Counted from the first letter of the stretch, positions 18,237 through 24,066 are shown. The stretch is 64,000 bases of DNA from an uncultured Clostridia bacterium (GCA_944393505.1 CALYAK010000001.1:58775-122774), one strand, 5' to 3'. Numbers and translations are program-made. Notes: generated by a model not told the origin, from the sequence alone.

Positions 18237-18280
18237 ATTTTTTCCTCTTTTCTATTGTTTTTCCTTCGTTTATTATACTA

Positions 18281-18318
18281 AAAAGCTCCTAATAAAGCAA
18301 GAAAAAAACCTGTTTTTT
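18281..18318. terminator. Palindromic terminator-like hairpin upstream of gyrA, overlapping a TTGCTT-17-TATAAT gyrA promoter
   Basis: aaagcaagaaaaaa-cctg-ttttttcttgcttt. On the minus strand it is followed by TATAAT about 40 nt before the gyrA ATG. Confidence 0.4.
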
Positions 18319-18334
18319 CTTGCTTTATTCTTTG

Positions 18335-19069
18335 TTATATCAAGATTTCCGCAAGCTTTTTTTGTTCCTCTGTTAAATCAAAATTTTGATTATTATTTTT
18401 GATTAATTCATGTAAATTTTCAATTTTTCTTGCTTCTAAAATTGTCTTTTCTAATGGAACCAGTTCCTTCATTTTTTCTCGTATTTTCTCATACTCTCTT
18501 TGCATTCCGTTAAAATCTTGTTCTTGATAATAATCTTTCCATTGATTCATGTATTTGCCTAATTTTTCTACATTTTGAGCTTGCTTTCCAAATTCTTCGG
18601 TAATTCCTTTTTCAATTTGATTAATCACTGTATTTTTTCCTTTTTTAATTACTTGATAAAGCCCGTTATTTAGAATTCCCTCTGTTTTTGCCTTATTTAA
18701 AGCAAGATCAAAAAGATTTGATACATTGTCTAAGATCCCTCCACTTTTTATTGCATTTTGTGCTTGAGAAAGATCTTCAAATTTTCCGGTTGCGATTCCT
18801 AAAACACTCTTTCCTAAATTTATTGCTCCATCAATTGCTGTTTGTACACCATCTTCAAAACCATTTTTTAAAATAGCATTTTTCACATCAATCACTTCAT
18901 CTTCGATTAAATCTGGTACAATGGCAGAAATGCCGATATCTACCGCTTTATTAACTACCTTGCCAAGTGTTGTTTCGAAAAAAGATTCTTGTTTTTTTTC
19001 AATATTTATACCAATCTCTTGATCTTCTATTCTATTTTTTTCTAATTCGATTTGATTGATTAAATCCAT
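18335..19069 (-). CDS. Hypothetical alpha-helical protein, no TM, no recognisable family; first gene of the minus-strand T4SS-like block
   Basis: 244-aa ORF. Tight spacing (19 nt) to the upstream CpaE-like gene. Confidence 0.4.
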   Translation of the reverse strand: MDLINQIELEKNRIEDQEIGINIEKKQESFFETTLGKVVNKAVDIGISAIVPDLIEDEVIDVKNAILKNGFEDGVQTAIDGAINLGKSVLGIATGKFEDLSQAQNAIKSGGILDNVSNLFDLALNKAKTEGILNNGLYQVIKKGKNTVINQIEKGITEEFGKQAQNVEKLGKYMNQWKDYYQEQDFNGMQREYEKIREKMKELVPLEKTILEARKIENLHELIKNNNQNFDLTEEQKKLAEILI

Positions 19070-19088
19070 AAATATCTCCTTTTCTCTT

Positions 19089-20189
19089 TTATTGATATTT
19101 CAATTTTTCTGTCCAATTTCCCTCACTCATTCTTTCAGGAAATTTAATTCTTTTGATGATCTTTTGATATTCTTTCCATTCTTGAAAACCACCAAAATGT
19201 TTTCGATATCGAAAATTCATATTTTGAGCATAATTTTTTGTATCTCTTAGGATTCCTAGAATAGAAAAATCTCGAAAATTTTTAATTAAATTAATTCTTG
19301 TTAAACTATATTTTGAGAAGCGATTAAATAATATTTTCGTTTTTTTCCAATCAATTAATCCTTCATTTTTGATAAAAAAATCAATTCCCTTTAAATTCCC
19401 GGAAAAAGAAGATTCTACAACAAAAATCGTTAAATCGGAAACTCTTGATAATTCAGAATTAATTTTTAAAGGATCTTCTGTATTTGTATCAATTAATATA
19501 AAATCATATTTTTGTTTGAGACTTTCAATTTTTACTTCAAAATTTTGAATGATTTCTTCCCCATCACAGATATAAATTCTTTTATTAATCTTTCTTTCAA
19601 ATTCTTCTTTTTGCTCCTTCTGAGTAATCTTTAATAAAACCTTTCTTTCATAATCCATATCAATCATTAGTATTTTTTGAAAAGTTAGCATTTGTGCCAT
19701 CATAAAGCAAATACTCGTCTTTCCAGCACTATGGTCCCCCACAAATGCAATTACACTTGCATATCTTCTCTTTTCTTTTTTTATTTGTTTTATTTCTTCC
19801 TTTAAGCTCTCGATTTCTTTCTTTAATTCCTTATCTCCTTCTGCTTTTTTTTCTAATAACTCTTTTTTTATTATTTTTTCGTAATAAATTGCCTCTTCTA
19901 TTTTTTGATGCATTAATAATTTATTTTTTATTTGATTTTCTTTTGAATAAATTAAAATTATTTTTAAATCTTTTTTTCGTTTTTTTATTTTTTCGATTAT
20001 TTCTTCTAGTGAAAAAGGACCTTCTAAAAAATCACTCATTATTAAGTATTCAATTTCGATATTTTGATCAAAAAGCTCAAAAATTCCTTCTTGATATTGA
20101 ATATCTTTTCCTAAAATTTCACATTCTAATTTCTCTTTTAAACAATTATAAATTTGTTCATTTCCAATCGCTGTTACTATCTTCTTCAA
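19089..20189 (-). CDS. ParA/MinD-superfamily ATPase with N-terminal receiver-like domain and coiled-coil linker (CpaE/TadZ-like architecture)
   Basis: 366 aa. N-terminal about 100 aa REC-like (IEYLIMSD). K/E-rich coiled coil. Deviant Walker A AFVGDHSAGKTS and downstream ILIDTN Walker B-like. Overlaps the VirB4-like stop by 32 nt. Confidence 0.5.
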   Translation of the reverse strand: MKKIVTAIGNEQIYNCLKEKLECEILGKDIQYQEGIFELFDQNIEIEYLIMSDFLEGPFSLEEIIEKIKKRKKDLKIILIYSKENQIKNKLLMHQKIEEAIYYEKIIKKELLEKKAEGDKELKKEIESLKEEIKQIKKEKRRYASVIAFVGDHSAGKTSICFMMAQMLTFQKILMIDMDYERKVLLKITQKEQKEEFERKINKRIYICDGEEIIQNFEVKIESLKQKYDFILIDTNTEDPLKINSELSRVSDLTIFVVESSFSGNLKGIDFFIKNEGLIDWKKTKILFNRFSKYSLTRINLIKNFRDFSILGILRDTKNYAQNMNFRYRKHFGGFQEWKEYQKIIKRIKFPERMSEGNWTEKLKYQ

Positions 20190-22579: not shown

Positions 22580-22630
22580 AAAATCACCGTTTTTATTTTA
22601 TCTGTTTTTCCATTTTTTGTCAATTATTTT

Positions 22631-23576
22631 TTACAATTTTTTTGCTTCTTGCAGTGCAATTAAAAAAATTTCTTCTACTCTTTCTAATATTTCATCTGCT
22701 TGTTCAATTGGTAGTGCTTCTCCTTCTTTTCCTCTTCCTACTTCAATCGTATAACCTGGTTTTAAAAAATTTTCAACGAACCAATCTTTATAACCTGCAA
22801 AAGAAGAATCTTTTTCTGGCTTTGTCAATAAATAACCAGAAACGGTTTCAAACTTCTTCCCTATTTCATAACTTTCTTTAATTTTTCCATTTCCGATCAT
22901 CCCAATAAATTTCTTCTCCTTGTGAATGAAGAGATATCGTTAAATTAAATTGCTGCAAAGTTGTAAAATTTGCAAGGCTTTGACTTTCCAACTCAGATAA
23001 AGGATTTGGTCCTACATAATCACGATAATTTGGTCCTACTACTCCTTTTTTTCTTTTGATTACTTTTGCTTTTTCCCATCCAGTTGGATAATTTAAATTT
23101 AAATCAACACCCCTAATATTTGCCTTCCAGTTTTTTAAATATTTTTGATTTTTAAAAATTAATTCCAAAAATTCTTTTTGTTCAAAAATATATTTTTCCT
23201 TTTGAACCAGATCTACTCCATCTGGGTTTACCATCGGAACAAGAAAAAGTTTCGTTTGCGATAAAATTGAATTAACATCATATCCTTTATACAAATGATC
23301 TTTTTTTAGATGATTTAATAATTTTTCGAAAAAGTTTATACTGACAAGACTTGTGATCCATTCGTTTGCATGATGTGCCGCATTAATTAAAATTTTTTTA
23401 TTTCCTTCCCCTACTTTTAAATACGGAATTTTATGATTTAAAATACTCTTTCCGATACTTCCTTCTTCTAATGAGTTGATTTCTTTAAATTCATATTTTA
23501 AAAATTGGATATCTCGAACCAATTTTTGATATGTATAAAAATAATCTATTTTTCCAATACACTTTTCCATATTCAC
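22631..23576 (-). CDS. M14-family zinc peptidase (gamma-D-glutamyl-meso-diaminopimelate peptidase-like), split into 232-aa and 89-aa ORFs by a frameshift at a T5 run (22882-22886)
   Basis: HANEW zinc-ligand motif, PMVNPDG, DLNLNY. The downstream frame carries the typical C-terminal GYKDWFVENFLKPGYTIEVG segment. Deleting one base of the homopolymer gives a continuous protein of about 315 aa. Confidence 0.65.
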
Positions 23577-24018
23577 TCCTATCTTTTTTATTTTTATGAT
23601 TTTTTTTATTTTTTATGAATATTTTTTTTATTTTTGAAGATTCTAATGTTATAAGGTTAATATTAGTTTAACTAAGAGCTATAAATGGTTTGTTTTGAGC
23701 TGTTTATCGTTCGAGCAAAGATCTTTTCTTGCTGGTTTTCGGTAGGAATTGGTCGGCGATTAGAGTGTATCATTTGCAAAAAGAGCTATTTTTCGTGGTT
23801 TTTTCGTAGGTGATTCATTCGAGGTTAAGATGATTTTTATATTTTTTAACGGTCAATATTAGTCCTTTGGATGGATGAATTTGGTTGTTATGAATGTATC
23901 TATTGTCGAACAAAGGATGAAATGATGTGGTAAAGGGCTTATTTATACAGGAATGTATATTAGGTTCGTCGCTATGTGATTTTGTTTTCGTTGAAGATTA
24001 ATATTAGCTTTATACGAA

Positions 24019-24060
24019 AAGAAGCAACCAATGGATGCTTTCCATTGGTTGCTTCTTTTT
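24019..24060 (-). terminator. Rho-independent terminator immediately downstream of gyrB
   Basis: Perfect 14-bp stem gaagcaaccaatgg/ccattggttgcttc with T-run on the minus strand, 7 nt after the gyrB stop. Confidence 0.6.
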
Positions 24061-24066
24061 TATTTG

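Follow-up and report, generated by a model that had tools for sequence, protein, structure and literature searches.

Why do the two DNA gyrase genes of an uncultured Clostridia bacterium stand 5.8 kb apart, and what lies between them? The question was raised by a stretch of 64,000 nucleotides (nt) (GCA_944393505.1, CALYAK010000001.1:58775-122774), the whole of which is called the window below. An earlier note, made from the sequence alone, had taken the intervening DNA for an insertion of accessory genes into the gyrB-gyrA locus that uncouples the expression of the two gyrase subunits. The separation itself was borne out, with 5,830 nt (18237-24066) between the two genes identified with Pfam. 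We conclude that the arrangement is old and has been passed on vertically within a large clade of gut Clostridia, which are uncultured and have small genomes of low GC (guanine plus cytosine) content. We assign this conclusion a probability of about 0.72, which covers the arrangement together with its evolutionary reading.

Every open reading frame (ORF) inside the interval lies on the gene strand (-). In the order of that strand, 490 nt devoid of ORFs are followed by the pieces of an M14 peptidase gene and by ORFs of 185, 625, 366 and 244 amino acids (aa). The 185-aa and 625-aa ORFs encode the two parts of a VirB4-like ATPase, the 366-aa ORF encodes a ParA/MinD-like protein, and the last one encodes a protein named p244 here. 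The content of the interval is thus five genes in six ORF pieces and one predicted RNA gene. The earlier count of four non-gyrase genes on the same strand was correct as to the strand but not as to the number, and an RNA gene on the opposite strand has to be added. The GC content of this cassette is 0.24-0.27, compared with 0.30-0.34 for gyrA and gyrB. The coordinates of all features are collected in Table 1.

Conservation of the Arrangement across Contigs and Species

In the index of the assembly collection, 81 blocks contain the exact 625-aa VirB4 protein. The gene order was alike, the split peptidase included, in 23 of the 23 contigs read, which came from several cohorts and assemblers and were up to 108 kb long. 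Near-identical GyrB was found on contigs of 1.6-1.9 Mb, and one GyrB variant is indexed in 950 collection blocks. The gene order was also unchanged in other species, with VirB4 proteins 70-74% identical to that of the window.

For the species survey, a one-genome-per-species collection was scanned for VirB4 relatives, and tblastn with the window proteins was then performed. A VirB4 relative is encoded in 545 stretches. The best 80 of these 545 all belong to metagenome-assembled genomes from the gut titled uncultured Clostridia or Clostridium, with human, rabbit, chicken, goat, sheep and mouse as hosts. gyrB was located upstream on the same strand in all loci with enough sequence (63/63), and gyrA downstream in 45 of the 52 loci with at least 5 kb of downstream sequence. 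Both gyrase genes are visible in 49 loci, at a distance of 3.7-13.6 kb (median 5.8 kb). The 185-aa gene and p244 are present in each of these 49 loci, the ParA-like gene in 42 and the M14 peptidase gene in 5. GyrB identity in the related loci is 82-92%. One species (L015) does not have gyrB upstream, and the cassette nonetheless adjoins gyrA.

The same order was repeated in 80 further metagenome loci. As a control without selection through VirB4, three abundant GyrB variants (88-89% identical) were examined. In all three loci chosen in this way, gyrB and a gap are followed by the genes for the TraC-like protein, VirB4 and the ParA-like protein, then by one of ~220-240 aa and finally by gyrA. 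The synteny comparison with relatives that the earlier note had proposed therefore revealed an ancestral arrangement of a whole clade, the very outcome that it had named as speaking against an insertion. A literature search on this gyrB-gyrA arrangement or on the clade returned nothing relevant.

Some species (L019, L021, L027, L053, L054, L077 and others) carry extra DNA in the block, and their gyrB-gyrA gap reaches up to 13.6 kb; up to 3.3 kb of such DNA separates p244 from gyrA. In another related species (L179, 6036-7377), dnaA is called as two ORFs of 164 and 299 aa, which is either a frameshift or a sequencing error.

Divergence and Descent of the Cassette

The pairwise distances of VirB4 proteins from 50 loci correlated with the GyrA, GyrB and DnaN distances (r = 0.82-0.87). 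GyrA, GyrB and DnaN correlated with one another no better than with VirB4, and none of the 999 permutations of a Mantel test reached the observed value. This co-divergence indicates that VirB4 has been inherited vertically as a core gene. In a library clustered at 50% identity, the clade forms one full-length VirB4 cluster. Relatives outside the clade follow at 49-50%, then at 41-45%, and then at no more than 36% identity, the last being ordinary VirB4 proteins of 800-1000 aa. The closest plasmid-borne VirB4 is 35% identical.

A cluster of mobile-element type was found in locus L145 (VirB4 43% identical). Its genes are arranged in the order ParA, an unknown gene, SSB, pilin-like gene, p295 homologue, M23 peptidase, an unknown gene, TraC-like gene, VirB4, an unknown gene and VirB11-like gene. 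This order shows that the window genes are a subset of such a cluster, with the M14 peptidase in the position of the hydrolase. The reading of the earlier note was supported to the extent that the intervening genes do descend from a type IV secretion system (T4SS) cluster of mobile-element type. The note's term accessory, with the recent arrival that this implies, was not upheld: the block is found in all related species examined and co-diverges with GyrA, GyrB and DnaN. In a more distant chromosomal locus, L098 (VirB4 47% and GyrA 70% identical), the split VirB4 pair stands alone at 7497-9870 among housekeeping genes (dUTPase, flagellin, recJ, serS and argS). gyrA lies there 3.7 kb from the VirB4 pair on the opposite strand, and no gyrB is nearby.

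The Split VirB4 ATPase and Its Partner Operon

The 625-aa VirB4 passed the cut-offs of two Pfam families, P-loop_TraG (86.8 bits, cut-off 25.8) and AAA_10 (46.2 bits, cut-off 27.5). It matched the NCBIfam profile CD1110 with 304.9 bits at profile positions 182-730, and the 185-aa ORF matched positions 2-171 of the same profile with 29.2 bits; the cut-off of 325 is reached only by summing both pieces. Other NCBIfam matches of the 185-aa ORF were to positions 98-278 of Mbov_0397 VirB4 and to TrsD/TraD (E = 1.2e-7), and a precomputed Pfam TraC-like match is on record. The Walker A motif (GTSGAGKS, residues 268-275) and the Walker B residues D490 and E491 are invariant in 16 VirB4 sequences. The nearest solved structure is that of the Thermoanaerobacter VirB4 domain (4AG5, E = 3.6e-50). 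Because the split is kept across the clade, it is regarded as architecture and not as damage. By its profile matches, VirB4 is divided as in Gram-positive systems of the TrsD/TrsE type. For annotation, this means that the VirB4 split is a family architecture and the peptidase split a true frameshift; to read both as damage would be a mistake.

Other secretion components are encoded 2.5-8 kb from VirB4, namely a coupling protein, the pilin-like p114 and the membrane protein p295, and these neighbours recur in the related loci. They form an operon that is kept downstream of gyrA in the related loci and supplies the other part of the secretion genes. The two parts, which converge at 15708-15792, are divided by gyrA and by the DnaD-like and DnaC/DnaI-like genes; the latter two are convergent with gyrA and keep their position in 40 loci. 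The coupling protein (527 aa) matched Pfam TrwB_AAD_bind (2.6e-11) and TraG-D_C as well as NCBIfam TraD, and has a membrane segment at its N-terminus. p114 (114 aa) contains a signal peptide and two hydrophobic segments. Its matches to T4SS_pilin and TrbC were weak, and BLASTP revealed a weak similarity (7e-4) to its pilin-like counterpart in a plasmid cluster of Vescimonas. p295 (295 aa) has at least four hydrophobic segments and is similar (BLASTP, 5e-11) to the gene in the matching position of L145. No similarity of p295 or of the coupling protein to the nearest plasmid cluster (Vescimonas) was detected.

A LexA-like repressor gene (HTH_3 and Peptidase_S24; 7580-8161, +) and three tRNA genes (9562-9832, -) are located just upstream of this operon.

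The M14 Peptidase, the ParA-like Protein and p244

The M14 zinc carboxypeptidase-like gene occupies the usual place of the cell-wall hydrolase in type IV secretion clusters. Its frameshift follows ...EEIYWDD, and at least 10 independent contigs of the species have the identical split. In L017 the gene is one intact ORF, and from 44 of the 49 species loci it is missing.

The 366-aa protein scored below the Pfam cut-offs for CbiA (19.8 vs 25.4) and AAA_31 (18.3 vs 27). Direct reading gave VGDHSAGKT as its Walker A motif, in which the signature lysine of the deviant motif KGGxxGK[ST] is missing. Its counterparts in relatives (L011 to L013) matched CbiA, ParA and AAA_31. Taken together, the sub-threshold matches, the missing lysine and the family matches of the relatives suggest that the protein resembles a degenerate member of the ParA/MinD family. 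Judged by eye, it may carry a receiver-like extension at the N-terminus. It is the least conserved member of the cassette (median identity 31%, missing in 7 of 49 loci) and is distinct from the canonical Soj, which is encoded elsewhere in the window (37529-38308).

The protein p244 is acidic and soluble, with an isoelectric point of 4.9 (family median 4.8), and has 710 homologues. Comparison with Pfam, NCBIfam and PHROGs gave nothing significant. An AlphaFold2 model consisted entirely of helices at moderate confidence (predicted local distance difference test score of 67). Foldseek found no match of this model in the PDB at E <= 0.001, and a sequence profile search of the PDB returned noise only (ferritin, E = 0.14). 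The gap between p244 and gyrA is 95-235 nt as a rule, and the two genes stay adjacent even without gyrB or the ParA-like gene. From this position, a role of p244 related to gyrase is conceivable.

A Predicted Structured RNA Convergent with gyrB

The supposed spacer after gyrB holds a predicted RNA of ~370 nt with strong covariation, which matches no Rfam family. In 53 species loci, the region is 66-74% identical over ~430 nt (blastn); it invariably lies between gyrB and the cassette, and its conservation exceeds that of some neighbouring proteins. It is poor in G on the gene strand (35 G in 431 nt). RNAalifold analysis of a MAFFT alignment of 27 species gave 125 pairs, 69 of them with compensatory changes. 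Counted on the alignment from which the structure was predicted, 97.3% of the cells were paired, against 34-45% after the 3' partners had been slid by 1-3 columns, and none of 500 shuffles reached the observed value. On the opposite strand, the pairing fell from 97.3% to 69.8%, because 27.7% of the pairs are G-U. This strand-specific G-U pairing indicates that the RNA runs antisense to the row of genes and converges with gyrB. Folding of the window sequence by itself gave the same architecture.

The linkers between the helices are near-identical (GAGCNAA, GAGCAAA, GGCGAUAA, GAGCUAA and GAGCGAAU), and each hairpin starts with GA(G/U) and ends with (G/U)UC. From the repeated linkers, our guess is that the RNA might be a protein-binding scaffold with multiple sites.

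A covariance model of the 3' domain gave one match per locus, at 81-127 bits and on the strand opposite to gyrB. It matched 53, 35 and 3 loci in the sets searched, and otherwise, in ~2.4 Mb, only weak echoes inside the same RNA. Of the 103 loci in which the gyrB end and the TraC-like gene are both included, 82 have the RNA; in the 21 loci without it, the gap is only 125-570 nt. The median distance from the end of the 3' domain to the gyrB end is 50 nt in the related loci, and a hairpin with a U-run is present on the RNA strand in 39 of 77 of them. Ahead of P1, many species have a TTGAAT-18 nt-CATAAT pair, which is not clear in the window.

The RNA body remained unmatched when a 621-nt slice, 18 kb, the whole window and the loci L073, L066 and L025 were compared with Rfam 15 (4,227 families) at permissive thresholds. 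The sole Rfam matches of the RNA slice were to the terminator hairpin (E of at least 0.06). The conserved 29-nt pattern of the RNA was absent from the viral contigs searched, and blastn against plasmid and phage collections gave no match.

Several other identities were considered for this region. Protein coding was rejected, as no ORF is conserved; the median length of the longest stretch without a stop codon is 50 aa. A DNA-level element, such as iterons or DnaA boxes, was rejected on account of the compensatory changes and the strand-specific G-U pairs. The region thus displays the generic marks of a structured RNA gene, that is, compensatory changes, strand-specific G-U pairs and no conserved ORF. 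The signal recognition particle (SRP) RNA was ruled out as its identity, since that RNA lies elsewhere in the window (59789-59884), and RNase P, tmRNA and 6S RNA were rejected because no model matched. To our knowledge, the five-fold architecture of linkers and hairpins does not fit any of the latter three.

Transcription Signals around the Gyrase Genes

The earlier note had given gyrB a strong terminator of its own. A 20-bp hairpin is indeed present, but it is bidirectional: the scan scored it on the + strand, which has the T-run TTTTTTATTT, and only UUUU follows the stem on the gyrB strand. For gyrA, a promoter overlapping a terminator had been proposed. The hairpin and the hexamers are there, but the promoter-like pair, which overlaps the hairpin, has a weak -35 and scores under the scan threshold, and the hairpin has no adjacent U-run on the gene strand. 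A conserved terminator before gyrA was rejected, as a hairpin with a T-run was found in just 9 of 59 related loci. The part comprising the -10 and the leader is 85-87% conserved in several species (L017, L065, L067, L020 and L011/L012).

These signals suggest that gyrB and gyrA are very probably uncoupled in transcription. gyrB transcription most likely ends at the hairpin facing the convergent RNA gene, which makes co-transcription with gyrA unlikely. In most species, transcription may plausibly run on from the cassette into gyrA, because the hairpin upstream of gyrA is not conserved. The claim that the expression of the two subunits is uncoupled was therefore supported for the gyrB side and, as regards independent expression of gyrA, in part only.

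Proposed History and Alternative Explanations

We propose that part of a secretion cluster of the Gram-positive TrsD/TrsE kind, with its split VirB4, became fixed beside the gyrase genes in an ancestor, and that its core has since been kept as ordinary chromosomal genes under strong purifying selection. The retained core would consist of the split VirB4 and, past gyrA, of the coupling protein, the pilin-like protein and the membrane protein in the VirB6 position. The periphery would be decaying, with the peptidase lost in most species and frameshifted here, and the ParA-like protein poorly conserved and at times lost. The gyrB operon would stop at the bidirectional hairpin, which would also end the convergent ~370-nt RNA gene. 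The cassette would be transcribed from its own strong promoter-like site, and gyrA would be read from the conserved -10 and leader, probably also via read-through out of the cassette.

As to function, the retained ATPase, coupling, pilin-like and membrane proteins may, as a tentative suggestion, form an envelope translocon for DNA or protein and not a machine for self-transmissible conjugation. Of the features expected of the latter, the window has neither a relaxase nor an integrase nor a functional hydrolase among the ORFs scanned, and the block is not variably present among the related loci examined; we would therefore not class it as a conjugative element. Profile scans revealed no integrase or recombinase in or beside the interval, and no relaxase or integrase anywhere in the 64 kb. 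A wider proposal, which we consider rather unlikely, is that the block is a core unit in which a domesticated, relaxase-less machine derived from a T4SS stands beside a new class of large RNA with a six-way junction. This RNA could act as a multi-site protein scaffold or sponge, possibly for the machine or for gyrase control. On the model of Saccharibacteria, the role of the machine in these small genomes could then lie in a lifestyle that depends on a partner or in the exchange of DNA.

Several points weigh against the proposed history. Seven of the 52 loci with at least 5 kb of downstream sequence have no gyrA in reach, and larger insertions or rearrangement are possible there. Most loci were ascertained through VirB4 itself and only three were chosen independently, and membership of the clade was taken from the titles of NCBI records alone; a GTDB order such as TANB77 is our guess for it. 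L098, the sole more distant chromosomal relative, does not have the VirB4 pair between gyrB and gyrA, and the proposed order of events rests on very few outgroups. Among the ORFs scanned in the window, none was recognised as encoding a relaxase or a VirB8-like or VirB3-like protein; the components recognised thus fall short of a complete secretion machine, and the peptidoglycan hydrolase (M14) is a pseudogene in this species. Terminator-like and promoter-like sites as a class are no commoner here than in shuffled sequence, and all conclusions on transcription derive from consensus motifs.

The alternative that survives best, though it is still improbable, is that the ATPases have been re-used for a chromosomal task (DNA translocation, segregation or a function linked to replication) and not for secretion, with p244 perhaps acting on gyrase. 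This would explain the fixed place of the block among dnaA, dnaN, recF, gyrB, gyrA and the dnaD/dnaI-like genes. VirB4 and coupling proteins are ATPases of the FtsK/HerA type, and this general knowledge agrees with such a task. So do the synteny with replication genes, which is stable across the clade, the presence of a ParA-like gene in addition to the canonical Soj/Spo0J pair, and the acidic, soluble p244, which always stands immediately ahead of gyrA, also in L015, where gyrB is missing from the vicinity. However, the partner genes fit a typical secretion channel, since they encode a pilin-like protein with a signal peptide and a polytopic membrane protein, and the coupling protein has an N-terminal membrane segment. 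Moreover, L145, of mobile type, holds the same genes in a plain secretion cluster.

We find it harder still to regard the block as an inert, slowly decaying conjugative remnant that is kept since deletions beside the gyrase genes are harmful. The M14 gene, frameshifted here and missing from most species, the ParA-like protein (31% conserved, missing in 7/49 loci) and the lack of a visible relaxase in the window would agree with decay. Yet VirB4 is conserved like DnaA and its Walker motifs are invariant, and intact, conserved genes for the TraC-like protein, p244, the coupling protein, the pilin-like protein and p295 are found across the loci. At a divergence at which RecF holds 59% identity, that of an inert remnant would have dropped below 70%.

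A recent insertion of a mobile element, be it an integrative and conjugative element or a plasmid fragment, into adjacent gyrB and gyrA genes of one strain or species is very improbable. The genes do belong to conjugation-type families, the GC content of the cassette is below that of gyrA and gyrB, and a tRNA cluster lies close to the partner operon. Such an insertion is contradicted by the presence of the block in all related species loci examined, by its co-divergence with housekeeping genes, by the lack of an integrase, recombinase or relaxase in or beside the interval, and by the nearest plasmid homologue being only 35% identical. Finally, a chimeric join at the junctions, for which just the prior that the source is probably a metagenome assembly can be cited, is practically ruled out, since the identical protein stands in identical context on 23 or more independent contigs (drawn from different studies and assemblers, some of 108 kb) and more than 100 further species-level loci have the same order.

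Origin Region and Other Features of the Window

The origin row on the minus strand reads dnaA-dnaN-recF-remB-gyrB, with gyrB as its final gene, and rpmH, rnpA, yidC, jag, mnmE, mnmG, rsmG, soj and spo0J lie on the other side of dnaA. The cumulative GC skew of the window has its minimum directly upstream of dnaA. This minimum and the gene row indicate that the window is the chromosomal origin region of a bacterium of ~28% GC.

Three further observations were made in the window. Genes for a Big_2/SH3/dockerin protein (751 aa), a sortase and a cohesin-domain protein are clustered at 525-4581 (-); these are attachment parts of cellulosome style, in a genome that is apparently small. At 40221-44546 (-), a protein of 1,441 aa is encoded in which BcrAD/BadFG ATPase domains are fused with DUF2229 (CoA-enzyme activase type). 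The small SRP RNA (+) mentioned above lies directly upstream of dnaX (59938-61515), an ordinary arrangement that is also found in Bacillus.

Table 1. Features of the gyrB-gyrA locus and its surroundings, with the median identity to the window proteins across species.
Feature	Coordinates	Strand	Description	Median identity
TrwB/TraD-type coupling protein, pilin-like p114, polytopic membrane protein p295	10499-13322	+	Three-gene operon	Coupling protein 61%; p114 70%; p295 51%
DnaD/DnaB_2-domain protein and DnaC/DnaI-like AAA+ loader	13710-15708	+	324 aa and 335 aa; Pfam DnaB_2 4.5e-33, IstB_IS21, Bac_DnaA	61-65%
gyrA	15792-18236	-	814 aa; Pfam DNA_topoisoIV E = 1.3e-171, DNA_gyraseA_C	85%
Promoter-like pair ahead of gyrA	-35 18300-18295; -10 18277-18272	-	TTGCTT, TATAAT; 17-nt spacer; direct reading	
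AT-rich hairpin ahead of gyrA	18291-18329	-	17 bp, 3 G-C pairs	
p244	18335-19069	-	244 aa; no family match; directly upstream of gyrA	50%
ParA/MinD-like ATPase	19089-20189	-	366 aa; 32-nt overlap with VirB4 ORF; sub-threshold CbiA and ParA matches	31%
VirB4-like type IV secretion ATPase	20158-22035	-	625 aa; 14-nt overlap with preceding 185-aa ORF	70%
VirB4 N-terminal domain as own protein (TraC-like/TrsD-like)	22022-22579	-	185 aa	52%
Best sigma-70-like promoter match of the region	22595-22623	-	TTGACA-17-TAAAAT, 11/12; consensus match; ahead of 185-aa gene	
M14 zinc carboxypeptidase-like gene, frameshifted	22631-23576 (22878-23576 and 22631-22900)	-	232 and 89 aa; Pfam Peptidase_M14 3e-28	
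Conserved structured non-coding RNA, ~370 nt	23651-24013	+	Six helices; 5' end uncertain, about 23645	
RNA closing helix P1	23651-23668 with 23996-24013	+	Encloses five hairpins	
RNA hairpins	P2 23676-23712; P3 23720-23754; P4 23763-23820; P5 23824-23911; P6 23916-23986	+		
Bidirectional terminator-like hairpin	24016-24060	both	20 pairs, 7 G-C; common to gyrB (-) and RNA gene (+)	
gyrB	24067-25980	-	637 aa; Pfam DNA_gyraseB, Toprim, HATPase_c, DNA_gyraseB_C	85%
RemA-like small gene	26007-26255	-		
recF	26255-27340	-		59%
dnaN	27377-28501	-		
dnaA	28820-30184	-		69%

Comparison with Known Systems

Few long structured RNAs without an assigned function are known from bacteria, and several of them turned out to be ribozymes or large assemblies. 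The RNA after gyrB resembles OLE, ROOL, GOLLD and raiA in being long, with many covarying helices, and in being a predicted stand-alone gene with a terminator and without an assigned function. It differs from them in that it matches no Rfam 15 family. In addition, we know of no member of these four in which a single closing helix surrounds five hairpins linked by GAGCNAA.

The separation of the gyrase subunit genes has a counterpart in Escherichia coli, where gyrA and gyrB are far apart, are not co-transcribed and have their own promoter each. Unlike in E. coli, the gyrase genes of the window are close to each other and co-oriented in the origin-proximal row of Firmicutes, and a defined, conserved block lies between them.

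The closest architectural parallels are the Gram-positive systems with a split VirB4, namely TrsD/TrsE (pSK41/pGO1), TraD/TraE (pIP501) and the CD1110-family VirB4 found in conjugative transposons of Clostridioides difficile. As in these systems, an N-terminal protein of ~190 aa precedes an ATPase of ~620 aa, and a coupling protein, a pilin-like protein, a polytopic membrane protein and a cell-wall peptidase are encoded in the neighbourhood. The ATPase domain of the window protein likewise aligns to the Thermoanaerobacter VirB4 of 4AG5. In contrast to the conjugation systems, the window genes are chromosomal, vertically inherited and core-like, and gyrA and the dnaD/dnaI-like genes stand in the midst of the set. 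Neither a relaxase nor a VirB8-like gene was seen in the 64 kb, and the window VirB4 is at most 35% identical to plasmid VirB4 proteins. The coupling protein of the window is of the TrwB/TraD type, and no similarity to the CD1115-type protein encoded in the nearest plasmid cluster was detected. It is unusual for conjugation-type ATPases to be vertically inherited core genes at a housekeeping level of conservation.

A comparable case is found in Saccharibacteria (TM7), in which VirB4 is highly conserved across all genomes and is encoded in a conserved operon together with a murein endopeptidase and a variable VirB6 (PMC7739484). Both lineages have reduced genomes, in both VirB4 is steadier than its membrane partner (70% vs 51% for p295 in the present clade), and a peptidase is encoded alongside (PMC7739484). 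Saccharibacteria belong to another phylum, and the block described here lies between gyrase genes and has mostly lost its peptidase. The likeness is an analogy at the level of lifestyle. The apparent local oddity of the gyrB-gyrA interval thus becomes a synteny marker for a very prevalent uncultured gut lineage, and its conjugation-type ATPases, kept as core genes, point to a non-conjugative use of T4SS parts in small-genome Gram-positive bacteria.

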